Shown in pieces: positions 7,663-30,569 of a stretch of DNA of 64,000 bases (positions are counted from its first letter, which is position 1; every line of letters begins with the position of its first letter). The notes under the pieces are model-generated. The model was not told the DNA's origin. It worked only from the letters and a program-made list of their open reading frames with translations, and ran no database searches. Both the position numbers and the translations under genes were made by a program. Origin of the DNA: Escherichia coli (GTDB lineage Bacteria; Pseudomonadota; Gammaproteobacteria; Enterobacterales; Enterobacteriaceae); the NCBI RefSeq assembly GCF_965641715.1, contig NZ_OZ282453.1; one strand, written 5' to 3'.

Positions 7663-7682
7663 CAATGCCACAGGATATCGCT

Positions 7683-8486: not shown

Positions 8487-8496
8487 GGAGAGAACG

Positions 8497-9300: not shown

Positions 9301-9321
9301 ACGTACGATGTGGAGCGCATC

Positions 9322-10677: not shown

Positions 10678-10683
10678 GGAGTC

Positions 10684-11577: not shown

Positions 11578-11603
11578 CCATTTATCAACCTGAGAGACTC
11601 GAC

Positions 11604-12768: not shown

Positions 12769-14331
12769 ATGAAACCAGAAGATTTCCGCGCCAGTACCCA
12801 ACGTCCGTTCACCGGGGAAGAGTATCTGAAAAGCCTGCAGGATGGTCGCGAGATCTATATCTATGGCGAGCGAGTGAAAGACGTCACCACTCATCCGGCA
12901 TTTCGTAATGCGGCAGCGTCTGTTGCCCAACTGTACGACGCGCTGCACAAACCGGAGATGCAGGACTCTCTGTGTTGGAACACCGACACCGGCAGCGGCG
13001 GCTATACCCATAAATTCTTCCGCGTGGCGAAAAGTGCCGACGACCTGCGCCAGCAACGCGACGCCATCGCTGAGTGGTCACGCCTGAGCTATGGCTGGAT
13101 GGGCCGTACCCCAGACTACAAAGCCGCTTTCGGTTGCGCACTGGGCGCGAATCCGGGCTTTTACGGTCAGTTCGAGCAGAACGCCCGTAACTGGTATACC
13201 CGTATTCAGGAAACTGGCCTCTACTTTAACCACGCGATTGTTAACCCACCGATCGATCGTCATTTGCCGACCGATAAAGTGAAAGACGTTTACATCAAGC
13301 TGGAAAAAGAGACTGACGCCGGGATTATCGTCAGCGGTGCGAAAGTGGTTGCCACCAACTCGGCGCTGACTCACTACAACATGATTGGCTTCGGCTCGGC
13401 ACAAGTGATGGGCGAAAACCCGGACTTCGCACTGATGTTCGTTGCGCCAATGGATGCCGATGGCGTCAAATTAATCTCCCGCGCCTCTTATGAGATGGTC
13501 GCGGGTGCTACCGGCTCGCCATACGACTACCCGCTCTCCAGCCGCTTCGATGAGAACGATGCGATTCTGGTGATGGATAACGTGCTGATCCCATGGGAAA
13601 ACGTGCTGATCTACCGCGATTTTGATCGCTGCCGTCGCTGGACGATGGAAGGCGGTTTTGCCCGTATGTATCCGCTGCAAGCCTGTGTGCGCCTGGCAGT
13701 GAAACTCGACTTCATCACGGCACTGCTGAAAAAATCACTCGAATGTACCGGCACCCTGGAGTTCCGTGGTGTGCAGGCCGATCTCGGTGAAGTGGTAGCG
13801 TGGCGCAACACCTTCTGGGCATTGAGTGACTCGATGTGTTCAGAAGCGACGCCGTGGGTCAACGGGGCTTATTTACCGGATCATGCCGCACTGCAAACCT
13901 ATCGCGTACTGGCACCAATGGCCTACGCGAAGATCAAAAACATTATCGAACGCAACGTTACCAGTGGCCTGATCTACCTCCCTTCCAGTGCCCGTGACCT
14001 GAACAATCCGCAGATCGACCAGTATCTGGCGAAGTATGTGCGCGGTTCGAATGGTATGGATCACGTCCAGCGCATCAAGATCCTCAAACTGATGTGGGAC
14101 GCCATTGGCAGCGAATTTGGTGGTCGTCACGAGCTGTATGAAATCAACTACTCCGGTAGCCAGGATGAGATTCGCTTGCAATGTCTGCGCCAGGCACAAA
14201 GCTCCGGCAATATGGACAAGATGATGGCGATGGTTGATCGCTGCCTGTCGGAATACGACCAGAACGGCTGGACTGTGCCGCACCTGCACAACAACGACGA
14301 TATCAACATGCTGGATAAGCTGCTGAAATAA
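12769..14331 (+). CDS. hpaB: 4-hydroxyphenylacetate 3-monooxygenase, oxygenase component
   Basis: 520-aa ORF. Confidence 0.9.
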   Translation: MKPEDFRASTQRPFTGEEYLKSLQDGREIYIYGERVKDVTTHPAFRNAAASVAQLYDALHKPEMQDSLCWNTDTGSGGYTHKFFRVAKSADDLRQQRDAIAEWSRLSYGWMGRTPDYKAAFGCALGANPGFYGQFEQNARNWYTRIQETGLYFNHAIVNPPIDRHLPTDKVKDVYIKLEKETDAGIIVSGAKVVATNSALTHYNMIGFGSAQVMGENPDFALMFVAPMDADGVKLISRASYEMVAGATGSPYDYPLSSRFDENDAILVMDNVLIPWENVLIYRDFDRCRRWTMEGGFARMYPLQACVRLAVKLDFITALLKKSLECTGTLEFRGVQADLGEVVAWRNTFWALSDSMCSEATPWVNGAYLPDHAALQTYRVLAPMAYAKIKNIIERNVTSGLIYLPSSARDLNNPQIDQYLAKYVRGSNGMDHVQRIKILKLMWDAIGSEFGGRHELYEINYSGSQDEIRLQCLRQAQSSGNMDKMMAMVDRCLSEYDQNGWTVPHLHNNDDINMLDKLLK

Positions 14332-14348
14332 CGCAGCAGGAGGTTAAG

Positions 14349-14861
14349 ATGCAATTAGATGAACAACGCCTGCGCTTTCGTGACGCGATGGCCAGCCTGT
14401 CGGCAGCGGTAAATATTATCACCACCGAGGGCGACGCCGGACAATGCGGGATTACGGCAACGGCCGTCTGCTCGGTAACGGATACACCACCGTCGCTGAT
14501 GGTGTGCATTAACGCCAACAGTGCGATGAACCCGGTTTTTCAGGGCAACGGCAAGTTGTGCGTCAACGTCCTCAACCATGAGCAGGAGCTGATGGCACGC
14601 CACTTCGCGGGCATGACGGGCATGGCGATGGAAGAGCGTTTTAGCCTCTCGTGCTGGCAAAAAGGTCCGCTGGCGCAGCCGGTGCTAAAAGGTTCGCTGG
14701 CCAGTCTTGAAGGTGAGATCCGCGATGTGCAGGCAATTGGCACACATCTGGTGTATCTGGTGGAGATTAAAAACATCATCCTCAGTGCAGAAGGTCACGG
14801 ACTTATCTACTTTAAACGCCGTTTCCATCCGGTGATGCTGGAAATGGAAGCTGCGATTTAA
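14349..14861 (+). CDS. hpaC: 4-hydroxyphenylacetate 3-monooxygenase, flavin reductase component
   Basis: 170-aa flavin reductase-like ORF directly downstream of hpaB. Confidence 0.9.
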   Translation: MQLDEQRLRFRDAMASLSAAVNIITTEGDAGQCGITATAVCSVTDTPPSLMVCINANSAMNPVFQGNGKLCVNVLNHEQELMARHFAGMTGMAMEERFSLSCWQKGPLAQPVLKGSLASLEGEIRDVQAIGTHLVYLVEIKNIILSAEGHGLIYFKRRFHPVMLEMEAAI

Positions 14862-14995: not shown

Positions 14996-15253
14996 GTTAT
15001 TTACCTTACTTTACGCGCGCGTATCTCTGGCAACATCACTGCAGGATAGCGGTCAATTTACCTCCTCAAACGCAACGCAAACCTAGAACGGCTTCGGCCT
15101 ATGATTAACAAATTACTCTATGGATTTTGGTTTGCAGGAAGGCAGCAAGTGAGTGAATCCCCGGGAGCTTACAACAGTAAGTGTCAGAGGTGAACGAACG
15201 CAGCTGCCGCACCTGTAAGCCAAAAGACGACGAGTAAAATGCCAGGTTTTACT

Positions 15254-17404
15254 ATGGATACGAAAAAACTATTCAAGCACATACCCTGGGTGATTCTCGG
15301 AATCATCGGTGCATTCTGCCTCGCGGTAGTTGCATTACGTCGGGGGGAGCACGTCAGCGCCCTGTGGATCGTGGTCGCCTCTGTGTCGGTGTATCTGGTG
15401 GCGTATCGCTACTACAGTCTGTACATCGCCCAGAAGGTGATGAAACTCGACCCCACACGCGCGACGCCTGCGGTTATTAACAACGACGGTCTGAACTACG
15501 TTCCGACCAACCGTTACGTGTTGTTTGGTCACCACTTCGCCGCTATCGCCGGTGCTGGTCCGCTGGTTGGTCCGGTGCTCGCCGCGCAGATGGGCTACCT
15601 GCCTGGCACGCTGTGGCTGCTGGCGGGGGTAGTGCTGGCCGGTGCGGTACAGGACTTTATGGTGCTGTTTATCTCCTCTCGCCGTAACGGCGCATCTCTC
15701 GGTGAGATGATCAAAGAAGAGATGGGGCCAGTACCGGGGACTATCGCGCTGTTTGGCTGTTTTTTAATCATGATCATCATCCTCGCCGTTCTGGCGCTGA
15801 TTGTGGTTAAAGCCCTGGCCGAAAGTCCGTGGGGTGTCTTCACCGTTTGCTCAACCGTACCAATTGCGCTGTTTATGGGTATCTACATGCGCTTTATCCG
15901 TCCGGGGCGTGTGGGTGAAGTCTCTGTCATTGGTATCGTGCTGCTGGTTGCCTCTATCTACTTCGGTGGCGTGATTGCTCACGATCCGTACTGGGGTCCG
16001 GCACTGACCTTTAAAGACACCACCATTACCTTCGCGCTGATTGGCTATGCGTTTGTTTCCGCACTGCTGCCGGTGTGGCTGATCCTCGCACCGCGCGATT
16101 ATCTGGCAACCTTCCTGAAAATCGGCGTTATCGTCGGCCTGGCGCTGGGTATCGTGGTGCTGAACCCGGAACTGAAAATGCCTGCGATGACCCAGTACAT
16201 TGACGGTACTGGCCCGCTGTGGAAAGGCGCTCTGTTCCCGTTCCTGTTCATCACCATCGCCTGTGGTGCGGTATCTGGCTTCCACGCGCTGATCTCTTCC
16301 GGTACGACGCCGAAACTGCTGGCTAACGAAACCGACGCGCGTTTCATTGGCTACGGCGCAATGCTGATGGAGTCCTTCGTGGCGATTATGGCGCTGGTTG
16401 CTGCGTCCATCATCGAACCGGGTCTTTACTTCGCGATGAATACCCCGCCTGCGGGCCTTGGCATCACCATGCCTAACCTGCATGAAATGGGTGGCGAGAA
16501 CGCGCCGATCATCATGGCGCAGCTGAAAGACGTTACCGCACACGCGGCGGCGACCGTCAGCTCCTGGGGCTTCGTGATTTCGCCAGAGCAGATCCTGCAA
16601 ACCGCGAAAGACATTGGTGAGCCTTCTGTCCTGAACCGTGCAGGTGGTGCGCCGACGCTGGCGGTAGGTATCGCTCATGTGTTCCACAAAGTGCTGCCGA
16701 TGGCTGACATGGGCTTCTGGTATCACTTCGGTATTCTGTTCGAAGCCCTGTTCATCCTGACCGCGCTGGATGCGGGTACCCGTTCTGGCCGCTTTATGCT
16801 GCAAGACCTGCTGGGTAACTTCATCCCGTTCCTGAAAAAAACCGACTCTCTGGTTGCCGGTATCATCGGTACTGCGGGCTGTGTGGGTCTGTGGGGCTAC
16901 CTGCTGTATCAGGGCGTGGTCGATCCGCTGGGCGGCGTTAAGAGCCTGTGGCCGCTGTTCGGTATCTCCAACCAGATGCTGGCAGCCGTAGCGCTGGTAC
17001 TGGGCACCGTTGTGCTGATTAAGATGAAGCGCACCCAATACATCTGGGTAACTGTTGTTCCGGCTGTATGGCTGCTTATCTGCACCACCTGGGCGCTGGG
17101 TCTGAAACTGTTCAGTACCAACCCGCAGATGGAAGGCTTCTTCTACATGGCAAGCCAGTACAAAGAGAAGATTGCTAACGGTACTGACCTGACGGCGCAG
17201 CAGATTGCCAACATGAACCACATCGTTGTGAACAACTACACCAACGCAGGCCTGAGTATTCTGTTCCTGATTGTGGTGTACAGCATCATCTTCTACGGTT
17301 TCAAAACCTGGCTTGCGGTGCGTAACAGCGACAAACGTACTGACAAAGAAACACCGTACGTTCCAATCCCGGAAGGCGGCGTGAAGATCTCTTCGCACCA
17401 CTAA
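15254..17404 (+). CDS. btsT: Pyruvate/H+ symporter, CstA family
   Basis: ORF 15239..17404; likely start MDTKKLFKHIPW (716 aa); polytopic CstA-type transporter; synteny with yjiX-yjiA. Confidence 0.9.
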   Translation: MDTKKLFKHIPWVILGIIGAFCLAVVALRRGEHVSALWIVVASVSVYLVAYRYYSLYIAQKVMKLDPTRATPAVINNDGLNYVPTNRYVLFGHHFAAIAGAGPLVGPVLAAQMGYLPGTLWLLAGVVLAGAVQDFMVLFISSRRNGASLGEMIKEEMGPVPGTIALFGCFLIMIIILAVLALIVVKALAESPWGVFTVCSTVPIALFMGIYMRFIRPGRVGEVSVIGIVLLVASIYFGGVIAHDPYWGPALTFKDTTITFALIGYAFVSALLPVWLILAPRDYLATFLKIGVIVGLALGIVVLNPELKMPAMTQYIDGTGPLWKGALFPFLFITIACGAVSGFHALISSGTTPKLLANETDARFIGYGAMLMESFVAIMALVAASIIEPGLYFAMNTPPAGLGITMPNLHEMGGENAPIIMAQLKDVTAHAAATVSSWGFVISPEQILQTAKDIGEPSVLNRAGGAPTLAVGIAHVFHKVLPMADMGFWYHFGILFEALFILTALDAGTRSGRFMLQDLLGNFIPFLKKTDSLVAGIIGTAGCVGLWGYLLYQGVVDPLGGVKSLWPLFGISNQMLAAVALVLGTVVLIKMKRTQYIWVTVVPAVWLLICTTWALGLKLFSTNPQMEGFFYMASQYKEKIANGTDLTAQQIANMNHIVVNNYTNAGLSILFLIVVYSIIFYGFKTWLAVRNSDKRTDKETPYVPIPEGGVKISSHH

Positions 17405-17412
17405 CCGTGTTT

Positions 17413-17440
17413 AGCCCCGCTTCGGCGGGGCTTTGTTCTT
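17413..17440 (+). terminator. Hairpin plus T-run between btsT and yjiX
   Basis: AGCCCCGC-ttcg-GCGGGGCT followed by TTGTTCTT. Confidence 0.7.
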
Positions 17441-17453
17441 ATCAGAGTGAACT

Positions 17454-17657
17454 ATGTTTGGTAACTTAGGACAGGCAAAAAAATATCTCGGCCAGGCGGC
17501 GAAGATGTTGATTGGCATTCCAGACTACGACAACTACGTCGAGCATATGAAGACCAACCATCCCGACAAGCCGTACATGAGCTATGAAGAATTCTTCCGC
17601 GAACGCCAGAACGCGCGCTACGGCGGCGATGGTAAAGGCGGTATGCGCTGTTGTTAA
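17454..17657 (+). CDS. yjiX: YbdD/YjiX-family small protein (DUF466)
   Basis: 67-aa ORF directly downstream of the CstA-family transporter, the conserved pairing. Confidence 0.85.
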
Positions 17658-17667
17658 TGGAGAGAGC

Positions 17668-18624
17668 ATGAACCCGATTGCAGTTACCCTACTCACCGGT
17701 TTTTTAGGCGCGGGAAAAACCACCCTGCTGCGCCATATTCTTAACGAACAACACGGCTACAAGATTGCCGTGATTGAAAACGAATTCGGCGAAGTCTCCG
17801 TTGATGATCAACTGATTGGCGACCGCGCCACGCAGATCAAAACGCTGACCAACGGCTGCATCTGCTGTTCGCGCTCCAACGAGCTGGAGAACGCGCTACT
17901 CGACCTGCTGGATAATCTCGACAAGGGCAATATTCAGTTCGATCGTCTGGTCATTGAATGCACCGGCATGGCCGATCCTGGCCCGATTATTCAGACCTTT
18001 TTCTCCCATGAGATTTTATGCCAGCGCTACCTGCTGGACGGCGTGATTGCGCTGGTGGATGCGGTACATGCCGATGAGCAGATGAACCAGTTCACCATCG
18101 CCCAGTCCCAGGTTGGCTACGCCGACCGTATTCTGCTGACTAAAACCGACGTCGCAGGCGAAGCAGAAATACTGCGTGAACGTCTGGCACGCATCAACGC
18201 CCGTGCACCGGTCTACACCGTCACCCACGGCGACATCGACCTGGGCCTGCTGTTCAACACTAACGGTTTTATGCTGGAAGAAAACGTCGTCAGCACCAAA
18301 CCGCGTTTCCACTTTATCGCGGATAAACAAAACGATATTTCGTCGATTGTGGTGGAACTGGATTACCCGGTAGATATCAGCGAAGTTTCCCGCGTGATGG
18401 AAAACCTGCTGCTGGAATCGGCGGATAAACTGCTGCGTTACAAAGGGATGCTGTGGATTGACGGCGAACCTAATCGCCTGCTGTTCCAGGGCGTCCAGCG
18501 CCTCTACAGCGCCGACTGGGACCGCCCATGGGGCGATGAAAAACCGCATAGCACGATGGTGTTTATCGGGATTCAGTTGCCGGAGGAAGAGATTCGGGCG
18601 GCGTTTGCGGGGTTGAGGAAGTAA
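17668..18624 (+). CDS. yjiA: CobW/COG0523-family P-loop GTPase (metal chaperone-like)
   Basis: Start MNPIAVTLLTGFLGAGKTTL (Walker A), CICCS metal-binding motif; 318 aa. Confidence 0.9.
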   Translation: MNPIAVTLLTGFLGAGKTTLLRHILNEQHGYKIAVIENEFGEVSVDDQLIGDRATQIKTLTNGCICCSRSNELENALLDLLDNLDKGNIQFDRLVIECTGMADPGPIIQTFFSHEILCQRYLLDGVIALVDAVHADEQMNQFTIAQSQVGYADRILLTKTDVAGEAEILRERLARINARAPVYTVTHGDIDLGLLFNTNGFMLEENVVSTKPRFHFIADKQNDISSIVVELDYPVDISEVSRVMENLLLESADKLLRYKGMLWIDGEPNRLLFQGVQRLYSADWDRPWGDEKPHSTMVFIGIQLPEEEIRAAFAGLRK

Positions 18625-18710
18625 TCGTGAAAGGTTGAGTGTAAAGCAGCTCAATGCCCCATTTAGCAGTGAGGGGGGAAACAGAACGACGTGCTCCCCT
18701 CCGCTAAGTT

Positions 18711-18902
18711 TTATTGCGCGTGAATACCTGGATCTGGCAAAAAATTGCCGCGTTTGGCGTCAGACCATGCTTCGCTACCAGAAGCAGGAATGTCGCTGTA
18801 ATCAATGTCTTCGTCGGATTTATTAACCAAAGCCATGAGTTCAGCTTCTTGCTGCACATCAAGTGTGTAGAGTGTGCCCCGTTTATGTTTAACCATGCTC
18901 AT
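18711..18902 (-). CDS. Small acidic ORF of uncertain status, possibly a truncated antitoxin-like fragment
   Basis: 63-aa ORF 39 nt downstream of the membrane-protein gene on the same strand; carries an EDIDYSDIP motif that resembles, from memory, the N-terminal segment of BrnA/DUF4415-type antitoxins; no RHH domain follows. Confidence 0.35.
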   Translation of the reverse strand: MSMVKHKRGTLYTLDVQQEAELMALVNKSDEDIDYSDIPASGSEAWSDAKRGNFLPDPGIHAQ

Positions 18903-18941
18903 TTATGACCAGAACCTTTACGATTTAATTATAAAGATGAC

Positions 18942-19910
18942 TTATTTCAGCCATCCAGGCACGTTATATTCTGAGACATTCTCAATGGAATATGCATCTC
19001 TCCTGTCAGAACCTTTCTTACACTTCAACTCATTGAACCCCCATTTACCCTCTCTATTGGAATAAAATACAGTATATTTATCAGTATTAAACCCGAAATA
19101 TCTTTCATCCGGACGTGAAATATTCAACTCTCCACATTTAACCTGACTGCGCCATTCAAAATCTATGGTGCTTTTTAAAACGTAGTACGAAATATTCTCT
19201 ACATTTTTTGAAGCAAAAACTACTAAAATAGTAGATACTATAAATGCTCCGGCAAGTATAAATAACCTATACACACTTAATTTAGTCCCCAGAGTTAAAA
19301 AAGCAAAATAGATAATAAGTTGCATCAACATGAAGAAAATCAACAAAAAAGCCATCCCTTTCCAGAAATACTCAACCCATGGTGATAGTGTGATATTTAG
19401 ATTACTCAAACTTAAAAATAAACTGGAAGAAAAACTACTTGAGAATAAATATATAATTGGTATGACAGCTAAAGTCATAGACCTAATAATCATTAATTTT
19501 TTATTATTTTTAAATTCCAACTCTAATATAATAAAAACACCTCCCAGAAAAACAAATACTGAAAAAGCACTAAAAACGTATACAGAGACACTGACTGGAA
19601 AAATATTAATTGAAAGCACAAAAAACAAAAATATAAACCATGCAATAAGTGAACACCAGGCAGCACAACTATTCAAACTGTTTTTATTACTGAACTTGAC
19701 AAAATACCCCATATATTCTGTAATGCGATTTTCTTCCACTAATGCATAAAGAAGAATACCAACAAAGCACAGAGATAAAATAATATCTTTCCACAGATAT
19801 TTATAAGGGAGAAGTATAAAACCAAGGAGTAGATAAATTAGCAGAATGACATCTAATGCCTTAGTACAAAAATATTGTTTCACTCCTTGCAAGAACCGAA
19901 CATTCTCCAT
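18942..19910 (-). CDS. Uncharacterised polytopic membrane protein (about 7 TM helices plus ~90-aa C-terminal soluble domain)
   Basis: ORF 18942..19943; ATG at 19910 preceded by GGAGAAGGA SD; very AT-rich; occupies the slot between yjiA and hsdR where K-12 carries mrr. Confidence 0.7.
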   Translation of the reverse strand: MENVRFLQGVKQYFCTKALDVILLIYLLLGFILLPYKYLWKDIILSLCFVGILLYALVEENRITEYMGYFVKFSNKNSLNSCAAWCSLIAWFIFLFFVLSINIFPVSVSVYVFSAFSVFVFLGGVFIILELEFKNNKKLMIIRSMTLAVIPIIYLFSSSFSSSLFLSLSNLNITLSPWVEYFWKGMAFLLIFFMLMQLIIYFAFLTLGTKLSVYRLFILAGAFIVSTILVVFASKNVENISYYVLKSTIDFEWRSQVKCGELNISRPDERYFGFNTDKYTVFYSNREGKWGFNELKCKKGSDRRDAYSIENVSEYNVPGWLK

Positions 19911-20050
19911 ATGAATCCTTCTCCAGCTATTGATGAAACTCAAGAATACCTTTAAAACAGTGACTTAACGCTGATAATACTCTTTGAACAGATGAATTCA
20001 TCTATTTTTCTGTGTAGAATTTGCGCATCGCATTTAGATGAGAACACCCC

Positions 20051-22483
20051 ATGGCGGAACTGAACCTAAGTAACCTGACGGAAGCAGACATCATTACCAA
20101 ATGCGTTATGCCAGCCATTCTCAATGCAGGCTGGGACAACACAACGCAAATCAGACAGGAGGTCAAACTCCGGGACGGTAAAGTCATCGTACGTGGTAAA
20201 GTTGCGGCACGCAGAACGGTAAAATCTGCTGACATCGTGCTGTACCACAAGCCAGGCATTCCCTTAGCCGTGATTGAAGCAAAAGCCAACAAACATGAAA
20301 TTGGCAAAGGGATGCAACAGGGCATTGAATATGCGCGCCTGCTGGACGTTCCTTTTGTTTTTGCCACCAATGGTGATGGCTTTATCTTCCGCGATGCCAC
20401 CGCAGCTGAAGGTGAATGCCTTGAAAAGCAAATAACGCTGGATGACTTCCCCTCCCCCGCTGAACTCTGGCAAAAATTCTGCCTCTGGAAAGGATACACA
20501 CAAGCTCAGCTTCCGGTGATTACTCAGGACTATTACGACGATGGTAGCGGTAAATCGCCTCGTTATTATCAACTTCAGGCAATCAACAAAACCATTGAAG
20601 CCGTCTCCAACGGGCAAAACCGCGTTCTGCTGGTCATGGCGACCGGAACAGGGAAAACCTATACCGCATTCCAGATCATCTGGCGCCTGTGGAAATCAAA
20701 AAATAAAAAACGCATTCTGTTCCTTGCCGATCGCAACATTCTGGTCGACCAAACCAAAAATAATGATTTCCAGCCATTTGGTACGGCAATGACCAAAGTC
20801 AGCGGACGCACCATTGATCCCGCTTATGAAATTCACCTCGCGCTCTATCAGGCTATAACTGGCCCGGAGGAAGACCAAAAAGCGTTTAAACAAGTCGCAC
20901 CAGATTTCTTCGATCTGATCGTGATCGACGAATGCCATCGCGGCAGCGCATCCGAAGACAGCGCCTGGCGAGAGATCCTTGATTATTTCAGTTCCGCCAC
21001 CCAAATTGGCTTAACCGCCACGCCAAAAGAGACGCATGAAGTCTCCAGCACGGATTACTTCGGCGATCCGGTTTACGTCTACTCGCTAAAAGAAGGGATC
21101 GAAGACGGCTTCCTCGCCCCTTATAAAGTTGTCCGTGTTGATATTGATGTTGATCTGCAAGGCTGGCGCCCAACCAAAGGGCAAACTGACTTAAACGGCG
21201 AAGTGATCGACGATCGTATCTATAACCAGAAAGATTTCGATCGCACGATGGTAATCGACGAACGCACAGAACTGGTTGCCAGAACCATTACCGACTACCT
21301 CAAGCGCACCAATCCGATGGATAAAACCATCGTCTTCTGTAACGACATCGATCATGCAGAACGTATGCGCCGCGCCCTGGTTAATCTCAACCCGGAGCAG
21401 GTGAAAAAGAACGACAAATACGTCATGAAAATCACCGGCGATGATGAAATTGGCAAAGCTCAGTTGGATAACTTCATCAACCCGAAAAAACCGTACCCGG
21501 TTATCGCGACCACTTCAGAGCTGATGACCACCGGTGTGGATGCTAAAACCTGCAAACTGGTAGTACTGGACCAGAACATCCAGTCGATGACCAAATTCAA
21601 GCAGATTATCGGTCGTGGTACACGCATCGACGAACGTTACGGCAAACTCTGGTTTACCATCCTCGACTTTAAAAAAGCCACCGAACTGTTTGCCGATGAG
21701 CGTTTCGATGGCATTCCCGAAAAAGTCATGGATACCACACCAGAGGATATCGCCGATCCAGACTCTGATTTTGAAGAGAAACTCGAAGAAATCAGCGAAC
21801 ATGTCGACGAACAGGTAACAGGCGTTGATGAACCGCCTGCGCCACCATACCAGGTTAAAGATACCGATGATGTCGGCCCACTTCCGGAAGAAGACGAGAA
21901 GAAAATCCGCAAGTTTCACGTCAACGGTGTAGCGGTGGGCGTTATTGCCCAGCGTGTTCAGTATTACGACGCCGACGGTAAACTGGTTACCGAATCCTTT
22001 AAAGATTACACTCGCAAAACACTGCTCAAAGAATATGCCTCGCTGGATGACTTTACCCGCAAGTGGCAGGACGCCGATCGCAAAGAAGCGATCATTCACG
22101 AGCTGGAGCAACAGGGGATCATCTGGGAAGTACTGGCAGAAGAAGTCGGTAAAGATCTCGACCCATTCGACATGCTTTGCCACGTAGTGTATGGTCAGCC
22201 GCCGTTAACCCGCAAAGAGCGCGCCGAGAACGTGCGCAAGCGGAACTACTTCACAAAATACTCTGAAGCAGCGCAAGCCGTGCTCGATAATCTGCTGGAT
22301 AAATACGCCGATGCGGGCGTACAGGAGATCGAAAGTATTCAGGTGCTGAAACTTAAGCCATTCGACAGCATGGGCACCTTACCGGAGATTATTAAAACCG
22401 GATTTGGCGACCGTAACGGGTATAATCAGGCGCTCAGCGAGCTGGAAAACGAAATCTACCAATTACCGCCCCGCTCTGCTTAA
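20051..22483 (+). CDS. hsdR: Type I restriction enzyme R subunit
   Basis: 810 aa; N-terminal PD-(D/E)xK-like motif (D...IEAK), SF2 helicase motif I (MATGTGKT) and motif II (DECHR). Confidence 0.9.
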
Positions 22484-22549
22484 CAACTCTCTTTTGTGCC
22501 TTCTGCAACCATCATGTTGCAGAAGGCCTTGTTTTTCATGGAATACAAC

Positions 22550-24019
22550 ATGTCTATCAGCTCAGTAATCAAATCATTACAAGATATTATGCGCAAAGAT
22601 GCCGGTGTGGACGGCGATGCGCAGCGTCTCGGTCAGCTCTCCTGGCTGCTATTTTTGAAAATCTTCGATGCCCAGGAAGAGGCGCTGGAACTGGAGCAGG
22701 ATAACTATCAATATCCGATCCCACAGCGTTATTTGTGGCGCAGTTGGGCCGCCAACGCGCAGGGCATTACCGGTGATTCCCTGCTGGAATTCGTTAATGA
22801 TGATCTGTTCCCGGCGTTGAAAAACCTCACTGCGCCTATCGATAAAAACCCACGCGGCTACGTGGTAAAGCAGGCGTTCAGCGATGCCTATAACTATATG
22901 AAAAACGGTACGCTACTGCGTCAGGTGATCAACAAGCTGAACGAAATTGACTTTACCAGCGCCAGCGAACGCCATCTGTTTGGTGATATTTACGAACAGA
23001 TCCTTAAAGATCTGCAATCTGCGGGCAATGCTGGCGAATTCTATACTCCACGCGCCGTCACTCGCTTTATGGTGGATCGCGTCGATCCGAAACTCGGCGA
23101 ATCCATTATGGACCCGGCCTGCGGTACGGGCGGTTTTCTTGCCTGCGCATTTGATCATGTAAAGAACAAATACGTGAAGAGCGTCGCCGATCATCAGACG
23201 CTGCAACAACAGATCCACGGTGTTGAGAAAAAACAGCTTCCGCACCTGCTGGCGACCACCAATATGCTGCTGCACGGCATTGAAGTACCGGTACAAATTC
23301 GTCACGACAACACCCTGAACAAACCGCTTTCCTCCTGGGATGAACAACTGGATGTCATTGTTACCAACCCGCCGTTTGGTGGCACGGAAGAAGATGGTAT
23401 TGAGAAGAACTTTCCAGCAGAGATGCAAACCCGCGAAACGGCGGATTTGTTCCTGCAACTGATTGTGGAAGTACTGGCGAAAAACGGTCGCGCGGCGGTG
23501 GTATTGCCGGATGGCACACTATTTGGCGAAGGCGTTAAAACCAAAATCAAAAAGCTACTTACCGAAGAGTGCAACCTGCATACCATCGTGCGCTTACCGA
23601 ATGGTGTGTTTAACCCCTATACCGGCATTAAAACCAACCTGTTGTTCTTTACCAAAGGTCAGCCAACCAAAGAGATTTGGTTCTATGAGCATCCGTATCC
23701 GGCGGGCGTGAAAAACTACAGCAAAACCAAGCCGATGAAGTTTGAAGAGTTTCAGGCGGAGATCGACTGGTGGGGTAACGAGGCCGATGGTTTTGCCAGC
23801 CGCGTCGAGAATGAGCAAGCGTGGAAAGTCAGCATTGATGACGTGATTGCGCGTAACTTCAATCTGGATATTAAAAACCCACATCAGGCGGAAACCGTCA
23901 GCCATGATCCGGACGAACTGTTAGCGCAGTATGCAAAGCAACAGGCGGAGATCCAGACGCTGCGTAATCAACTGCGCGATATTCTCGGCGCTGCGCTGTC
24001 TGGCAAGGAGGTTAACTGA
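22550..24019 (+). CDS. hsdM: Type I restriction-modification N6-adenine methyltransferase M subunit
   Basis: ORF 22496..24019; AdoMet motif DPACGTGGFL and catalytic NPPFGG; start is uncertain (Met at 22538 or 22550). Confidence 0.9.
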   Translation: MSISSVIKSLQDIMRKDAGVDGDAQRLGQLSWLLFLKIFDAQEEALELEQDNYQYPIPQRYLWRSWAANAQGITGDSLLEFVNDDLFPALKNLTAPIDKNPRGYVVKQAFSDAYNYMKNGTLLRQVINKLNEIDFTSASERHLFGDIYEQILKDLQSAGNAGEFYTPRAVTRFMVDRVDPKLGESIMDPACGTGGFLACAFDHVKNKYVKSVADHQTLQQQIHGVEKKQLPHLLATTNMLLHGIEVPVQIRHDNTLNKPLSSWDEQLDVIVTNPPFGGTEEDGIEKNFPAEMQTRETADLFLQLIVEVLAKNGRAAVVLPDGTLFGEGVKTKIKKLLTEECNLHTIVRLPNGVFNPYTGIKTNLLFFTKGQPTKEIWFYEHPYPAGVKNYSKTKPMKFEEFQAEIDWWGNEADGFASRVENEQAWKVSIDDVIARNFNLDIKNPHQAETVSHDPDELLAQYAKQQAEIQTLRNQLRDILGAALSGKEVN

Positions 24020-25776
24020 TGAGTGTGGAAAAGCTGATCGTTGATCATATGGAAACCTGGACCTCGGCGTTGCAAACCCGTTCCACCGCCGGGCGCGGCA
24101 GCTCCGGTAAGATTGATTTGTATGGTATTAAGAAATTGCGTGAGCTGATTCTGGAACTGGCGGTGCGCGGTAAACTGGTGCCGCAGGATCCGCATGATGA
24201 ACCGGCGTCGGAGCTGCTGAAGCGTAATGAAGAACGGAAAAAAGAATTAGCGCGCAATAATGGTATGAAAACCACAGCAAGCACTAATATCCATGGAAAT
24301 GAATATTATATCGATACCCCCGAAAAGTGGTCATGGATAAGACTTGGTAATTTAGCTAAATTCATCGATTACCGAGGAAAAACACCACATAAAAAAGAAA
24401 ATGGTATAAGGCTTATAACAGCAAAAAATATCAGAAAGGGCTATATTGATCTCAATCCAGAAGAGTTCATATCTGAAGAAGATTACATATCATGGATGAC
24501 AAGAGGCTTTCCTAAATGTGGTGATATTTTATTCACAACTGAAGCACCACTGGGGAATGCAGCGATTATTGATTTAGACGGAAAGTTCGCTCTTGCTCAA
24601 CGTTCTATCTGTTTTCAATGGCATACTCCAGAGATAAGCCCTTTTATGCTTATTCAAATCCTGGCGATCCCCTTCCAGTCACAACTAAGTGACAAATCTA
24701 CAGGCATGACCGCAACAGGAATAAAAGCGTCTAAGTTAAAAGAGATCCCTGTTATTTTACCACCTTACCAAGAACAAATACGTATTGTATCCAAAGTACA
24801 GGAGTTCATGTCCCTATGTGACCAACTGGAACAGCAATCCCTGACCAGTCTGGACGCACATCAGCAACTGGTTGAAACCCTGTTGGAAACACTTACAGAC
24901 AGCCAAAACGCCGAGGAACTGGCTGAAAACTGGGCGCGTATTAGCGAGCATTTCGACACCCTATTTACCACTGAAGCCAGCGTGGATGCGTTAAAACAGA
25001 CCATTCTGCAACTGGCCGTAATGGGTAAACTTGTGCCGCAGGATCCGAATGACGAACCAGCCTCTGAACTGCTCAAACGAATTGCGCAGGAAAAAGCTCA
25101 ACTGGTGAAAGAAGGGAAAATAAAAAAACAAAAACCGTTGCCGCCAATTAGCGATGAGGAAAAGCCGTTTGAACTGCCGGAAGGTTGGGAGTGGTGTCGA
25201 TTGGGTTCTATTTATAATTTTTTAAATGGATATGCCTTTAAAAGTGAGTGGTTTACCTCTGTCGGTTTACGTTTATTGCGGAATGCTAACATTGCTCATG
25301 GAGTTACCAATTGGAAAGATGTTGTACATATACCAAATGACATGATATCCGATTTTGAAAATTATATTTTGTCAGAAAATGATATTGTTATTTCATTAGA
25401 CAGACCAATTATTAATACCGGGTTAAAATATGCTATCATTAGCAAATCAGATTTACCCTGTTTACTGCTCCAACGAGTAGCAAAATTTAAAAATTATGCA
25501 AACACTGTGTCTAACTCCTTCTTGACAATATGGTTGCAATCTTATTTCTTCATAAATTCAATTGATCCTGGAAGAAGTAATGGAGTTCCACATATATCTA
25601 CGAAACAGTTAGAGATGACACTATTTCCTCTTCTACCGCAAAGTGAACAAGATCGTATTATTTCAAAAACGGATGAATTAATACAAACCTGTAATAAACT
25701 GAAATATATTATCAAAACCGCCAAACAAACCCAACTGCACCTTGCAGACGCACTGACTGACGCAGCGATAAACTAA
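24019..25776 (+). CDS. hsdS: Type I restriction-modification specificity subunit with two target-recognition domains
   Basis: 585 aa; start overlaps hsdM stop; two AT-rich variable regions flanked by a duplicated conserved segment (LAV(R/M)GKLVPQDP(H/N)DEPASELLKR) near 24130-24230 and 25000-25085. Confidence 0.9.
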   Translation: MSVEKLIVDHMETWTSALQTRSTAGRGSSGKIDLYGIKKLRELILELAVRGKLVPQDPHDEPASELLKRNEERKKELARNNGMKTTASTNIHGNEYYIDTPEKWSWIRLGNLAKFIDYRGKTPHKKENGIRLITAKNIRKGYIDLNPEEFISEEDYISWMTRGFPKCGDILFTTEAPLGNAAIIDLDGKFALAQRSICFQWHTPEISPFMLIQILAIPFQSQLSDKSTGMTATGIKASKLKEIPVILPPYQEQIRIVSKVQEFMSLCDQLEQQSLTSLDAHQQLVETLLETLTDSQNAEELAENWARISEHFDTLFTTEASVDALKQTILQLAVMGKLVPQDPNDEPASELLKRIAQEKAQLVKEGKIKKQKPLPPISDEEKPFELPEGWEWCRLGSIYNFLNGYAFKSEWFTSVGLRLLRNANIAHGVTNWKDVVHIPNDMISDFENYILSENDIVISLDRPIINTGLKYAIISKSDLPCLLLQRVAKFKNYANTVSNSFLTIWLQSYFFINSIDPGRSNGVPHISTKQLEMTLFPLLPQSEQDRIISKTDELIQTCNKLKYIIKTAKQTQLHLADALTDAAIN

Positions 25777-25800
25777 TTCCCTCGCCCTCAAAAAACCAAT

Positions 25801-25822
25801 AAAGCGGCTAAATAGCCGCTTT
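25801..25822. terminator. Hairpin after hsdS
   Basis: AAAGCGGCTA / TAGCCGCTTT inverted repeat preceded by an A-run and followed by TTATT. Confidence 0.55.
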
Positions 25823-25903
25823 ATTCACATCACCAAAAATTATATTTCACGCTAAACTTCATCTTATTTTCATTAATTTTTAGCTGGACTTCCCCTGTAT
25901 TTA

Positions 25904-25925: not shown

Positions 25926-26002
25926 AGCGCGGTGCGGATGTGCGCCAACACACCCGCACCGCTAATCACAATCCCTATTTCTAAGGAATAGTAATCATGA
26001 CT
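25926..26002 (-). ncRNA. symR: Antisense sRNA SymR, placed by homology expectation only
   Basis: SymR is known to be encoded antisense to the symE 5' end; an imperfect 14-bp hairpin (GCGGTGCGGATGTG ... CACACCCGCACCGC) lies at 25929-25962; exact ends not determinable from sequence. Confidence 0.35.
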
Positions 26003-26338
26003 GACACGCATTCTATTGCACAACCGTTCGAAGCAGAAGTCTCCCCGGCAAATAACCGTCAATTAACCGTGAGTTATGCGAGCCGCTACCCGGATTACAG
26101 CCGTATTCCCGCCATCACCCTGAAAGGTCAGTGGCTGGAAGCCGCCGGTTTTGCCACTGGCACGGCGGTAGATGTCAAAGTGATGGAAGGCTGTATTGTC
26201 CTCACCGCCCAACCCGCCGCCGCCGAAGAGAGCGAACTGATGCAGTCACTACGCCAGGTGTGCAAACTGTCGGCGCGTAAACAAAAGCAGGTGCGGGAAT
26301 TTATTGGGGTGATTGCGGGTAAACAGAAAGTCGCCTGA
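25997..26338 (+). CDS. symE: SOS-induced toxin SymE (type I TA toxin, AbrB-fold)
   Basis: 113-aa [37 protein letters not shown]... recognised as SymE; downstream of hsdS as in K-12. Confidence 0.9.
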
Positions 26339-26345
26339 TACATTG

Positions 26346-26371
26346 ACCCGGTAGCGCCAGTGCTACCGGGT
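26346..26371. terminator. Hairpin between convergent symE and the GmrSD-like gene
   Basis: ACCCGGTAGC-gccagt-GCTACCGGGT followed by ATTATT. Confidence 0.65.
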
Positions 26372-26384
26372 ATTATTCGCCGCG

Positions 26385-28478
26385 TTATACCAAGGCGCTC
26401 TCCATCTGTTTTTCAAATGCCTGACGAATTAATCCCATAATGTAAGGAAGTTGTGCGAGGTCACTGAAACCAATTTCCACATCACCATTACCCCAGCGCC
26501 CAACATTTGTCACATCTTTGGCAATACCTTTCGGATCGACCAGTTCATGAAACTGCATATTAAGCGACAATCGCAGTCGGCTTTTTTGCGGCACAACATC
26601 AACAAAATTCGTTTCCGCTTTAAACGCAATATATAGCTTCAATACTTCCTGCGTGATCCCTGCGTCCAGGCGCATAACTTCATCGCGAAGATGATCGAAT
26701 AACACCCGGCTATGCGAACCATCAGCAAGAAAAGGATAATCACTCAGGCTGTAACTGGTTTTGTTTTCAGGCTGTCCCCGATAAACAGCTAAAACCTCTT
26801 CAGGAAGAGAAGGCGCTTGCCAGACCTGAACCGCGAGATCGGCCAGACGATCGGCTCGGGCGTGAATGGCGGCTTCATCCCATTTTTCGCACTGTCCAAG
26901 ACCGATATTCAAATAGAGCGGGCTATGCTTAAAGCCGTCTTCAATATCGCGTTTTTCTGCGAAAGGTCTGTCACTGTAACGGGAGTTATAGCGCGTTAAA
27001 GTGAGATTCCCCAACGTATGCAACAGTTCTTTATGAATACGCTGCCAGTCGCTTCCCAGCTCTTCGCGCCATTTAGCCGACAAATTTTCGTTCTGCGGCA
27101 TAATATGTTCAATCGTAAACTCTTCCACGCGCTCTCTGCGTTTATCGTTTTCCAGTCGTCGTAACCAGTAGCTGCGACTACGGAAGTTATAGAGATCGCG
27201 AACTTTTAATTCCCGTTTAAATTCATCATCGTTGGGGAAACGACGATATGAAGGTAGATTCAAAAAATGTACCTGAATACTTTCCAGATAATTTTCTTTA
27301 TTAATAACTTTATAAAAAGTGGCAAATGTCTTGTTCAAAGAATTTGTCGGAATTGCACATACTGCACGGCGGAAAACATAAGATTCAATTAAACGAATTA
27401 TGCTCAGGAAATCTTCGTGAGACAAAACGCCATTTTTATAGTCATGATAAAGCGCCAGTAAGAAAGGATACACCACATCGACCTTTAACTCGCGCAAATC
27501 CTGAAAAGCCGTAGCAAGCAATTTGTCACTTTCTTTTCCCAATGCCATTGCACAGTAATACTCCGCGTAGATATGAATATCTTCAACCAGCCGATCTACG
27601 CCTTTTTCAGCAACACTCTGGCTGCGGGCATGGAGTTTAAATGCCTCATAGACTTCATCTGTCCGAGGGATCTCCCCCGTTTTTACCGTCAGATAATGAC
27701 GCATAAAACTGTCAAAATATTCGCTGTAACCTTGCTGACCAAAGGCGACTTCCATTGGACGCCAGTGATCTTCATACAACCGGGTTTGATGCTCTGGTTC
27801 GAGGCCCATCAGAATAAAATTGCGCACCAGATCGGCCTGACTTAACGCCTTACCGGTGGAGTTCATACTTTCAAAAATCAGTTGCGGATTATCCTGACCA
27901 CGATTAAGCGCCACATCGACAATTAATAACTTTGCTAACCCACGACATAAGGGGATCAAGTCATCACCGAGTTTGGCAATTTGTTCATCAAAGAAAGTAA
28001 AGTTTTCCATTATTCGATGGGAATAGTTTTCTGGCATTGGTCTTTGTTTTATTAACGCCAGTAAACTGTCTTTATCAGTCTCGGTCAGCAGTAATTTAAA
28101 ACCTTTCTCGCCGGACTCATAAGGATTGAGCAAATAATAATTACGCAATTTCATTGCCGAAAAGCCATCAAAAACTTCGTCTTCGCCAAGATGGCGCGAT
28201 AAAGCCTCAATCAGCAACATTGCGGTCGTCAGCCGCTGCTGACCATCAATGACCAGCAACGGAGAAATACCAGAAACCTGATACAATCCCTGCTCTATAT
28301 AAACAACCGAACCGATAAAATGCGCTGATATATCGTCACGCTTTCCTGCACGAATGATGTCGTCCCAAAGTTGCCGACATTGTTGCCCGGTCCATGAATA
28401 AGTCCGTTGATAAATGGGAATAACAAACTGCTGCGAACGTTTTAAAAAATCGAGTAGGCGAGCTTCTGTAGCTTTCAT
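26385..28478 (-). CDS. Single-chain DUF262/DUF1524 protein, GmrSD-family type IV restriction endonuclease candidate
   Basis: 697 aa; N-terminal DGQQR motif (DUF262 / ParB-like NTPase); C-terminal His-Me finger-like EHIMPQ motif (DUF1524); sits where K-12 carries yjiT-yjiV-mcrCB. Confidence 0.8.
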   Translation of the reverse strand: MKATEARLLDFLKRSQQFVIPIYQRTYSWTGQQCRQLWDDIIRAGKRDDISAHFIGSVVYIEQGLYQVSGISPLLVIDGQQRLTTAMLLIEALSRHLGEDEVFDGFSAMKLRNYYLLNPYESGEKGFKLLLTETDKDSLLALIKQRPMPENYSHRIMENFTFFDEQIAKLGDDLIPLCRGLAKLLIVDVALNRGQDNPQLIFESMNSTGKALSQADLVRNFILMGLEPEHQTRLYEDHWRPMEVAFGQQGYSEYFDSFMRHYLTVKTGEIPRTDEVYEAFKLHARSQSVAEKGVDRLVEDIHIYAEYYCAMALGKESDKLLATAFQDLRELKVDVVYPFLLALYHDYKNGVLSHEDFLSIIRLIESYVFRRAVCAIPTNSLNKTFATFYKVINKENYLESIQVHFLNLPSYRRFPNDDEFKRELKVRDLYNFRSRSYWLRRLENDKRRERVEEFTIEHIMPQNENLSAKWREELGSDWQRIHKELLHTLGNLTLTRYNSRYSDRPFAEKRDIEDGFKHSPLYLNIGLGQCEKWDEAAIHARADRLADLAVQVWQAPSLPEEVLAVYRGQPENKTSYSLSDYPFLADGSHSRVLFDHLRDEVMRLDAGITQEVLKLYIAFKAETNFVDVVPQKSRLRLSLNMQFHELVDPKGIAKDVTNVGRWGNGDVEIGFSDLAQLPYIMGLIRQAFEKQMESALV

Positions 28479-28574
28479 TCTGACGTCTTTCCGTGAAACG
28501 ATGATTTCGCAATAATAACCACTTCCTTGTGGAGGTTATAGAGAAATCCTGTTTATCCGCGACGAACATACCCC

Positions 28575-28739
28575 TCACTCCACATCCTCCCTGCGTAACC
28601 CAATATCCCTCAACCGCTCATCACTCATCTGCTGTAACACTCGTCGGGTCTGCATTTGCCACCGCCAACGCCTCATCGCCTGCCAGAGTTGCACAAGTCT
28701 GATAAACGGCGTTTTGGCTTTGTTTTCGTGAAATTCCAT
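28575..28739 (-). CDS. yjiS: DUF1127 small protein
   Basis: 54-aa ORF MEFHENKAKTPFIRLVQLWQAMRRWRWQMQTRRVLQQMSDERLRDIGLRREDVE translated by hand from the minus strand; below the ORF-track length cutoff; divergent from yjiR; coordinates +/-2. Confidence 0.7.
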   Translation of the reverse strand: MEFHENKAKTPFIRLVQLWQAMRRWRWQMQTRRVLQQMSDERLRDIGLRREDVE

Positions 28740-28915
28740 CTGCTGCCTCCTCATCTTTCAGAGGCTTCATCATCCGCCTTCTGGCAGTTCACAATACAGA
28801 TGCAAATATTAGTTTTATTTAACATACAGACAGGTTAAAACAGCATCTGCATCCGGTTTTTTAGCTTCATCTGTACCGGTTTTTCTCTCTGTATGGTCTA
28901 AATAAGGAATACAGC

Positions 28916-30328
28916 ATGACGCGTTATCAACATCTGGCAACTCTGCTTGCCGAGCGGATTGAGCAAGGGCTGTATCGTCACGGGGAGAAATTGCCGTCGG
29001 TGCGCAGCTTAAGTCAGGAGCACGGCGTCAGCATCAGCACCGTGCAGCAGGCGTATCAGACGCTGGAGACGATGAAGCTCATCACTCCGCAGCCGCGTTC
29101 GGGGTATTTTGTCGCACAACGTAAAGCCCAGCCGCCAGTGCCGCCGATGACGCGTCCGGTGCAGCGCCCGGTGGAAATTACCCAGTGGGATCAGGTACTG
29201 GATATGCTGGAGGCGCATAGCGACAGTTCCATTGTTCCGTTAAGCAAAAGCACGCCGGATGTCGAAACGCCCAGCCTGAAACCACTCTGGCGGGAGCTAA
29301 GCCGGGTGGTACAGCATAATCTGCAAACCGTTCTCGGTTATGACTTGCTAGCCGGTCAGCGGGTATTGCGCGAGCAGGTTGCCCGCCTGATGCTCGACAG
29401 CGGCTCGGTGGTCACCGCCGATGACATCATTATCACCAGCGGCTGCCATAACTCGATGTCGCTGGCGTTAATGGCGGTGTGTAAACCGGGCGATATTGTC
29501 GCGGTCGAATCCCCCTGTTATTACGGTTCGATGCAGATGCTGCGCGGCATGGGCGTGAAAGTGATTGAAATCCCAACCGATCCAGAAACTGGCATCAGCG
29601 TTGAAGCGCTGGAACTGGCGCTGGAACAGTGGCCGATTAAAGGCATCATTTTGGTGCCAAACTGTAATAATCCGCTGGGATTTATTATGCCGGACGCGCG
29701 CAAACGGGCCGTTCTCTCTCTCGCTCAGCGTCATGATATTGTGATTTTTGAAGATGATGTCTACGGCGAACTGGCAACGGAGTATCCGCGCCCGCGGACC
29801 ATTCATTCATGGGATATCGACGGGCGAGTGCTGTTGTGCAGCTCGTTCAGTAAAAGTATTGCTCCAGGCCTGCGCGTGGGTTGGGTCGCACCGGGGCGTT
29901 ATCACGATAAACTGCTGCATATGAAATACGCCATCAGCAGCTTTAATGTGCCGTCCACGCAAATGGCGGCAGCAACGTTTGTGCTGGAAGGTCACTATCA
30001 TCGCCATATCCGGCGGATGCGGCAGATCTATCAGCGCAATTTGGCGCTTTATACCTGCTGGATACGGGAATATTTTCCCTGCGAAATCTGTATTACGCGC
30101 CCGAAAGGCGGATTTTTACTGTGGATAGAATTGCCTGAACAGGTCGATATGGTCTGCGTCGCGCGGCAGCTGTGCCGCATGAAAATCCAGGTGGCGGCAG
30201 GCTCGATTTTCTCAGCTTCCGGCAAATACCGTAACTGCCTGCGCATCAACTGCGCTTTGCCGCTCAGCGAAACCTATCGCGAAGCACTGAAGCAAATTGG
30301 CGAGGCCGTGTATCAGGCAATGGAATGA
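28916..30328 (+). CDS. yjiR: MocR-type regulator (GntR HTH fused to PLP-dependent aminotransferase-like domain)
   Basis: 470-aa ORF with N-terminal GntR-type HTH and large class I aminotransferase-like domain. Confidence 0.85.
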   Translation: MTRYQHLATLLAERIEQGLYRHGEKLPSVRSLSQEHGVSISTVQQAYQTLETMKLITPQPRSGYFVAQRKAQPPVPPMTRPVQRPVEITQWDQVLDMLEAHSDSSIVPLSKSTPDVETPSLKPLWRELSRVVQHNLQTVLGYDLLAGQRVLREQVARLMLDSGSVVTADDIIITSGCHNSMSLALMAVCKPGDIVAVESPCYYGSMQMLRGMGVKVIEIPTDPETGISVEALELALEQWPIKGIILVPNCNNPLGFIMPDARKRAVLSLAQRHDIVIFEDDVYGELATEYPRPRTIHSWDIDGRVLLCSSFSKSIAPGLRVGWVAPGRYHDKLLHMKYAISSFNVPSTQMAAATFVLEGHYHRHIRRMRQIYQRNLALYTCWIREYFPCEICITRPKGGFLLWIELPEQVDMVCVARQLCRMKIQVAAGSIFSASGKYRNCLRINCALPLSETYREALKQIGEAVYQAME

Positions 30329-30446
30329 ATTCGAATCAGTGGCGAGGCCCCTGATTTCCTCTCACGAATCGCCTGTGACTCGTTTTATCTTTGCAGGGGC
30401 ATCACCACGTTCCAGCATGGCTTAGGCAAAGTGTGCTTTGTTCATA

Positions 30447-30545
30447 CCGGATGCGGCGTGAACGCCTTATCCGGCTTACAAATCGCGCAAATTCAATAGA
30501 TTGCAGAGGTAATGTAGGTCTGATAAGCGTAGCACATCAGGCAGC
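30447..30545. repeat. BIME: two REP units in opposite orientation
   Basis: CCGGATGCGGCGTGAACGCCTTATCCGGCTTAC and GTAGGTCTGATAAGCGTAGCACATCAGGCAG. Confidence 0.8.
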
Positions 30546-30569
30546 TTTGCGTTTGTCATCAGTCTCTGA

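Follow-up and report, generated by a model that had tools for sequence, protein, structure and literature searches.

The minus-strand reading frame at 28575-28739 of the window, by which the whole analysed stretch of 64,000 nucleotides of Escherichia coli DNA is meant, is genuine and represents the E. coli orthologue of yjiS, a gene annotated previously. The immigration control region (ICR) as a whole is bounded by yjiS on one side and by yjiA on the other; yjiS is not the edge of one swapped module. Orthology, the position at the ICR border, the action on PhoR described for YjiS in the literature and a predicted control by YjiR are, taken together, very probably the best explanation for this locus. 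The location of yjiS at the ICR border and the replacement of McrBC by GmrSD homologues are already known, and confirmation of the gene matters little beyond correct annotation, the gene being in RefSeq and functional studies of the protein having been published in 2025. With the present comparison, the borders of two variable slots of the ICR (18625-25875 and 26335-28570) were obtained at the nucleotide level. The features of the region are listed in Table 1.

Identification of yjiS

Translation of the minus strand gave MEFHENKAKTPFIRLVQLWQAMRRWRWQMQTRRVLQQMSDERLRDIGLRREDVE, a complete protein of 54 aa followed by a stop codon. This is what an earlier note on this DNA had described, namely a complete 54-aa protein of the DUF1127 type, divergent from yjiR and hidden from the open reading frame (ORF) track for being shorter than 60 aa. 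An upstream ATG at 28754 opens a mechanical ORF of 59 aa, and yjiS is absent from the track because the default of the ORF lister is 60 aa; a real, functional small-protein gene is concealed by this threshold. The description of the gene as missed is correct for the ORF track only, since the RefSeq annotation includes it under the name yjiS. The ATG at 28739 is the better start compared to that at 28754, because the sequence GAGGAGG is located 6 nt upstream and because 54 aa are annotated by both RefSeq and K-12. The GAGG-AGG of this Shine-Dalgarno sequence is conserved in E. coli, Citrobacter and Klebsiella.

A short ORF alone is weak evidence for a gene, because ORFs of 30 aa or more are abundant here (185 overlapping 20 kb). 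The product of the frame matched the Pfam family DUF1127 (PF06568) with 44.1 bits (E = 1.7e-11; curated gathering score 23.3 bits) and belongs to this family, the match spanning residues 18-54 of the protein and positions 1-37 of the 37 in the profile. The D-I/V-G-L motif near the C-terminus, which is a hallmark of DUF1127 proteins along with small size and arginine richness, is present. The earlier note had rested its identification on similarity to K-12 YjiS, and this was confirmed by BLASTP, with 48 of 54 residues identical in a gapless alignment (E = 1e-34) and 154 of 165 identical positions in the nucleotide sequences. The orthologues of Citrobacter and Klebsiella have exactly 54 aa each. 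An N-terminal MEFHEN and a C-terminal DxGLRR motif are invariant in the YjiS proteins of E. coli and these two genera, and D45, G47, L48, R49 and R50 are found in all 19 aligned sequences. The yjiS frame is the only one of six which is open in all four species compared, and its pN/pS (0.21-0.23, with synonymous sites saturated between genera) is the lowest of the six. The exact protein of the window is recorded on 122 public contigs as 'DUF1127 domain-containing protein [Escherichia coli]'. Orthology is also seen in the gene order: yjiS is divergent from yjiR, as the earlier note had it, yjiR being encoded on the plus strand, within a collinear yjiS-yjiR-rpn-mdtM-yjiN segment, in which an intact rpn, mdtM and yjiN follow to the right of yjiR. 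The same synteny is given by the RefSeq annotation of the near-identical strain 13KWH46.

Table 1. Features of the yjiS region; positions refer to the window
Feature	Position	Strand	Basis or remark
btsT-yjiX-yjiA	15239-18624		98% identity to K-12 (blastn)
Variable block 1	18625-25875		window: hsd genes and two small genes; K-12: EcoKI hsdRMS and mrr
mrr slot: 63-aa antitoxin-like ORF (18711-18902) and 333-aa AT-rich hypothetical (18942-19943)	18625-20050	-	
Type I hsdR (810 aa, EcoAI/EcoEI family), hsdM, hsdS	20051-25776	+	Pfam; RefSeq names in 13KWH46
symE/symR segment	25876-26334		93.9% identity to K-12 (blastn)
symR antisense RNA	25926-26002	-	Rfam RF01809, 93.1 bits (gathering score 61)
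symE, 113 aa	25997-26338	+	Pfam SymE_toxin
Variable block 2	26335-28570		window: GmrSD-like gene; K-12: yjiT, yjiV pseudogene, mcrC, mcrB
GC hairpin (ACCCGGTAGC-GCCAGT-GCTACCGGGT) between convergent symE and GmrSD-like genes	26346-26371	.	read from junction sequence
GmrSD-superfamily gene, 697 aa, intact	26385-28478	-	Pfam, PADLOC, motifs in translation
Spacer from yjiS stop to GmrSD-like start, 96 nt, same strand	28479-28574	-	K-12 homology ends inside, at 28571
yjiS to yjiN	28571-33999		95% identity to K-12 4571919-4566501 (blastn)
yjiS CDS, 54 aa and stop	28575-28739	-	translation, Pfam PF06568, K-12 identity, pN/pS, RefSeq annotation
Divergent yjiR-yjiS intergenic region, 176 nt	28740-28915	.	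likely YjiR (MocR-type) operator/promoter region
Shine-Dalgarno sequence of yjiS	28746-28752	-	direct sequence reading
CTGTAT/ATACAG hexamers, four	28794-28799, 28824-28829, 28889-28894, 28909-28914		sequence scan
yjiR, 470-aa GntR/MocR-type regulator with aminotransferase-like domain	28916-30328	+	Pfam GntR and Aminotran_1_2; RefSeq

Borders and content of the variable region

The window is oriented opposite to the K-12 map. In a blastn comparison of the whole interval with K-12, three homologous segments were found (Table 1), and the rest of the yjiA-yjiN interval gave only short, weak matches. On the yjiS side the homology breaks at 28571, 4 nt past the yjiS stop, and on the symE side at 26334, within the final codons of that gene; to the left, the variable region is bounded by the stop codon of yjiA. 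The anchors of the ICR are in place, with yjiA ending at 18624 and yjiN identified as the ORF at 33254-34534 from its collinear position in 13KWH46 and K-12. Between yjiS and symE a block is indeed replaced, GmrSD-type content being found in the window in place of the mcrBC-type content of K-12, as stated in the earlier note. Its view that yjiS marks the edge of the replaced block was correct insofar as this difference is located between yjiS and symE, but the hsd and mrr modules beyond symE (18625-25875) differ as well. The hsdRMS genes of the window are non-homologous to those of K-12 EcoKI (only short matches of 70%). No Pfam or PADLOC match was obtained for the 333-aa hypothetical protein of the mrr slot, which is apparently multi-transmembrane, and no PADLOC model for the 63-aa antitoxin-like ORF. 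The genes symE and symR form a conserved island inside the variable region; symR was the only Rfam match above threshold, and sub-threshold matches to sraL and a snoRNA were dismissed as chance. The GC hairpin between symE and the GmrSD-like gene is probably a bidirectional terminator. Apart from the symE/symR island, nothing between the stop codons of yjiS and yjiA is homologous to K-12, and yjiS is located at its side of the ICR border. The genes yjiS and symE converge, and the sub-slot between their 3' ends is occupied by the GmrSD-like gene in the window, by yjiT-yjiV-mcrCB in K-12 and by nothing in ST131.

Eight alleles were aligned at the yjiS junction. Those with full-length yjiS share the 3' end TGA+GGGG, the GGGG being intact or changed by one base, and diverge completely thereafter; the exceptions are a diverged remnant in BH100 and strain A8, in which an IS3 is inserted at the yjiS 3' end. 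The same abrupt divergence was observed on the other side at the symE stop. Next to both borders the window is least similar to K-12 (95.0% identity over yjiS, 96.2% at the yjiA 3' end), and identity reaches 98-99% within about 1 kb, a pattern which fits that expected if the flanks travel with the cassettes in homologous recombination.

Allele frequencies were counted among 5426 complete E. coli genomes. Full-length yjiS was found in 3736 of them, a partial remnant in about 420 and no match in about 1270. In 971 genomes yjiS adjoins the GmrSD-like gene as in the window, in 630 it is followed by K-12-type sequence, and in 920, including ST131 JJ1886, the slot is empty and the convergent yjiS and symE are 42 nt apart; the window arrangement is one of three common alleles. 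The 42-nt spacer of the empty slot contains a strong GC hairpin (-24.5 kcal/mol, z = -3.0). This hairpin, 11 bp long (CCCCTTCCC...GGGAAGGGG), was read from the fetched loci L010 (6963-7004, JJ1886) and L011 (E. coli C), and in E. coli C it is kept after yjiS though symE is lost. E. coli C carries a type I fragment and a DUF262 gene in the region, strain A8 an IS3 and a penicillin acylase, and strain CFS3313 a full-length yjiT and a helicase. Altogether eight different arrangements of the ICR were found among the loci fetched, the content between the flanks being variable.

The earlier note had spoken of a swap of mcrBC-type for GmrSD-type content. The content does differ from that of K-12, but the direction of change cannot be inferred because empty-slot alleles exist. 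A direct exchange might never have taken place, the slot having been filled or emptied independently across lineages by insertion or deletion; this has a substantial, if somewhat less than even, chance of being correct. It is favoured by the 920 genomes with an empty slot and a 42-nt hairpin between yjiS and symE, and by the genomes of the BH100 type. These have lost yjiR and mdtM, and of yjiS only a 3' remnant is left beside the GmrSD gene. The yjiS-spacer-GmrSD layout is shared with the window, the remnant being about 85% and the GmrSD gene 96-97% identical to the window sequence. A diverged remnant beside a similar GmrSD gene points to a mosaic or to import from a diverged lineage, and the mismatch in identity therefore suggests that the yjiS-GmrSD junction is old and mosaic. 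Conversely, cassettes would be exchanged in one step by homologous recombination if it took place in the conserved flanks, namely in yjiS at one end and in symE or yjiA at the other, and the raised divergence of the flanks fits such a cassette replacement. On these data, a direct swap and independent filling or emptying of the slot are equally possible. The yjiS 3' remnant, 26 codons long, was found in about 420 genomes (fetched loci L003, 8177-8257; L006 and L007, 2592-2672).

A second alternative concerns the border itself. If yjiS-yjiR-rpn-mdtM were part of an exchangeable island with yjiN as the stable anchor, yjiS would not be the true edge and its retention would say little. Both yjiA and yjiN have been described as conserved ICR anchors across the Enterobacteriaceae (PMC12707154, a 2025 review). 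The 5' half of yjiS, yjiR and mdtM are missing in BH100-type genomes, and in strain 95-3322 codon 5 of yjiS is a nonsense codon, yjiR is truncated and mdtM is absent. The approximately 1270 genomes without a yjiS match, the low identity of the rpn segment to K-12 (only 85-88%) and the neighbours of yjiR-yjiS, which differ again in Citrobacter and Klebsiella, would agree with this as well. However, the window and K-12 are collinear rightwards from the yjiS stop with 95% identity, and every inspected allele with full-length yjiS breaks within a few nucleotides of the stop, so that an anchor at yjiN in place of yjiS is rather unlikely. For the retention of yjiS as an edge mark, as proposed in the earlier note, this means that the break of homology at its stop holds, but that the gene, being of full length in only 3736 of the 5426 genomes, does not serve as a fixed anchor. 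The reading of yjiS and yjiA as the two borders of the whole ICR is kept here.

Further differences from K-12 were observed along the window. The rpn gene (30570-31514, minus strand), encoding a YhgA-like recombination-promoting nuclease, is intact with 314 aa, and rpnD of K-12 is a pseudogene. The deletions of yjiS, yjiR and mdtM in genomes of the BH100 and 95-3322 types abut rpn. A gene for a 750-aa pentapeptide-repeat protein (37154-39406, plus strand) is located between ytiA and yjiK, and one for a 1746-aa intimin/invasin-like inverse autotransporter (41972-47212, plus strand; IAT_beta and eight Big_1 repeats) between yjiJ and kptA. Both are absent from K-12 and from 13KWH46, otherwise the closest genome. 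A 4-hydroxyphenylacetate (hpa) catabolic cluster (3614-14861, HpaB at 12769-14331) is found upstream of btsT; it is present in E. coli C and lacking in K-12. Also upstream of btsT, a stretch of 73 nt (15132-15204) shows 85% identity to the K-12 hsdM-hsdR intergenic region (4583138-4583210) and is probably a dispersed repeat (REP-like) element.

Candidate regulation of yjiS and its GmrSD-like neighbour

The spacer between yjiR and yjiS is conserved in length (176-177 nt) in E. coli, Citrobacter and Klebsiella, despite different flanking genes. In the latter two genera, a 470-aa gene with GntR and aminotransferase domains is located 177 nt from a 54-aa DUF1127 gene. Four CTGTAT/ATACAG hexamers were found within 121 bp (28794-28914), compared to 33 in the whole 64 kb, and all four are invariant in the intergenic alignment of the three genera. 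A conserved divergent pairing and conserved TGT-core repeats in the shared promoter region, as in MocR regulons, are thus both present at yjiR-yjiS. The DUF1127/YjiS family presumably corresponds to COG5457. MocR-family motifs typically hold TGT-core repeats (PMC5320631), and a regulog 'YjiR - Enterobacteriales' with COG5457 as target has been listed for E. coli, Citrobacter, Enterobacter and Pectobacterium, MocR-COG5457 pairs being similarly predicted in Rhizobiales (both in the supplement of PMC5320631). Control of yjiS transcription by YjiR through the four invariant CTGTAT repeats is a computational prediction and the most likely reading of this region. The control of a COG5457 gene by YjiR was published as a prediction in 2016 and is supported by the sequence here. 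A consensus scan of 26200-29100 found no sigma-70 consensus promoter in the yjiR-yjiS intergenic region. An interpretation of the repeats as Pho boxes bound by PhoB was rejected, their spacing being 20-30 nt and not 11.

Downstream of yjiS, in tandem, the window encodes a putative GmrSD-like type IV restriction enzyme. Its 697-aa sequence was matched by Pfam GmrSD_N (119.6 bits) and GmrSD_C (93.5 bits), with an extra C-terminal DUF5655, and contains both motifs characteristic of GmrSD proteins, DGQQR in the DUF262 part ('VIDGQQRLTT') and EHxxP in the DUF1524 part ('IEHIMP'). The best PADLOC model was 'Orf5' (738 bits), while the type IV model 'mREase_IV' scored 95 bits; the only relatives found in the PDB were a DUF262 protein (E = 1.5e-12) and SspE. 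The gene is present in about 1400 of the 5426 complete genomes. Besides the window, four E. coli genomes out of six sampled have the ORF intact, and for these RefSeq (PGAP) gives a 387-aa 'GmrSD domain' CDS and a DUF262 pseudogene 'missing C-terminus'. Of the six, O157:H7 strain 2149 and 13KWH46 were the only ones with true frameshifts of 1 nt. The idea that the gene is broken in most E. coli, suggested by the two RefSeq features, was dropped in view of the four intact translations, and the split looks like a systematic annotation artefact.

Co-transcription of the GmrSD-like gene from the YjiR-controlled yjiS promoter by read-through is conceivable because the gene lies in tandem 96 nt downstream, with no terminator-like structure or consensus promoter in between. 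Folding of the 96-nt spacer gave z = 0.01 and no terminator-like structure. In the scan of 26200-29100 for promoter and terminator consensus sequences, counts were no higher than in shuffles and no match was located in the yjiS-GmrSD spacer. In Salmonella, the yjiS promoter is among those most strongly induced during infection (PMC11707872). The GmrSD ORF, however, stays intact in genomes in which the yjiS promoter is deleted, and read-through is considered improbable. It is the only reading put forward here which is not already in print, and, if true, it would couple a defence nuclease in its expression both to a MocR regulator which senses metabolites and to a small protein modulating PhoR.

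Function of YjiS and comparison with known systems

According to the literature on E. coli, deletion of yjiS raises the pstS transcript and accelerates phosphate uptake, and YjiS binds PhoR in a two-hybrid assay (in one orientation only) and in a Far-Western blot; it has been proposed that the basic YjiS binds an acidic charged region of PhoR and thereby favours the phosphatase state (PMC12501420). In Salmonella, YjiS shows strong induction within host cells; it is associated with the inner membrane, from which it is released by salt, possesses an N-terminal amphipathic helix and brings down SsrA in pull-downs (PMC11707872). Extrapolated to the window allele, YjiS would be a cytoplasmic, helical small protein with peripheral membrane association, which might bind the sensor kinase PhoR and thus hold down the Pho regulon and phosphate uptake; the Salmonella protein additionally associates with SsrA/B. 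The same Salmonella study points to SsrA/B and PspA as other partners (PMC11707872). The window protein is very basic (pI 11.1, 10 Arg), and its most amphipathic segment of 18 residues comprises residues 8-25. An AlphaFold model, calculated with an alignment of 19 sequences, consists of a single long helix spanning residues 10-45; its confidence is low (mean pLDDT 68.9), and it is too featureless to be of use in a fold search. Basic charge, amphipathic segment and predicted helix would fit the picture of a peripheral protein binding PhoR. A PDB sequence search with YjiS returned chance matches only (Cmr4, E about 0.3), and none of the PADLOC models matched.

YjiS could instead be an RNA-binding protein and not a modulator of sensor kinases. 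CcaF1 of Rhodobacter sphaeroides, a DUF1127 protein, is reported to be RNA-binding and involved in sRNA maturation (PMC8034643), and YjiS shares with it the Pfam domain and an arginine-rich basic helix. Nevertheless, Salmonella YjiS pull-downs gave no evidence of transcript association and the YjiS proteins of enteric bacteria group in a clade of their own (PMC11707872), and direct binding to PhoR in vitro has been reported for E. coli YjiS (PMC12501420), so that a role in RNA binding seems doubtful and the sensor kinase is the preferred target.

Position 27, within the arginine-rich stretch, is W in the window allele and R in most E. coli alleles, and it varies between genera (W, L or R). The best yjiS match among complete genomes is 99.4% identical, but the allele is not private to the window, since it occurs exactly on the 122 contigs mentioned above. 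That the ORF is a decaying remnant from which no functional protein is made any longer in this strain, as might be suspected from W27 and from the decay of yjiS by nonsense codon or truncation in some lineages, is very improbable given the intact, full-length frame, a Shine-Dalgarno sequence and upstream region matching those of other functional alleles, the recurrence of the exact allele on public contigs, the occurrence of W, L or R at position 27 in other genera and the lack of a phenotype for single Arg-to-Ala changes in Salmonella YjiS (PMC11707872).

Compared to K-12, where YjiS (b4341, NP_418761.1) also has 54 aa and its gene is separated from the divergent yjiR by 176 nt of nearly identical intergenic sequence, the window protein differs by six substitutions (K7R, T10A, R14G, M22V, W27R and R44K, from window to K-12). 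Downstream of yjiS, K-12 has an AT-rich spacer of 498 nt followed by yjiT, whereas in the window the GmrSD-like gene follows in tandem after 96 nt. Cassette-like variation of the ICR was reportedly first described by Sibley and Raleigh in 2004. The arrangement in the window shows the same pattern of variable restriction genes between conserved flanks as reviewed for E. coli (PMC12707154), from which nothing essential differs, and GmrSD homologues replacing McrBC in the ICR have been reported (PMC4437046).

At the protein level, YjiS of Salmonella Typhimurium is among the closest known counterparts, being a 54-aa arginine-rich DUF1127 protein with a DIGL motif and an N-terminal amphipathic helix, located peripherally at the inner membrane; its role as a virulence timer and its partner SsrA/B, however, are specific for Salmonella (PMC11707872). 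SDP1-3 of Agrobacterium and CcaF1 of Rhodobacter contain the same Pfam domain, but belong to a different clade and are often shorter than 50 aa, and CcaF1 binds RNA. The Agrobacterium triple mutant is nevertheless complemented by E. coli YjiS, and both bind PhoR (PMC12501420). MgrB and UgtS have no sequence relationship to YjiS, and MgrB spans the membrane in contrast to the peripheral, cytoplasmic YjiS, but the pairs MgrB-PhoQ and UgtS-PhoQ resemble YjiS and its kinase in that the output of a histidine kinase is lowered by a short protein bound to it (PMC11707872).
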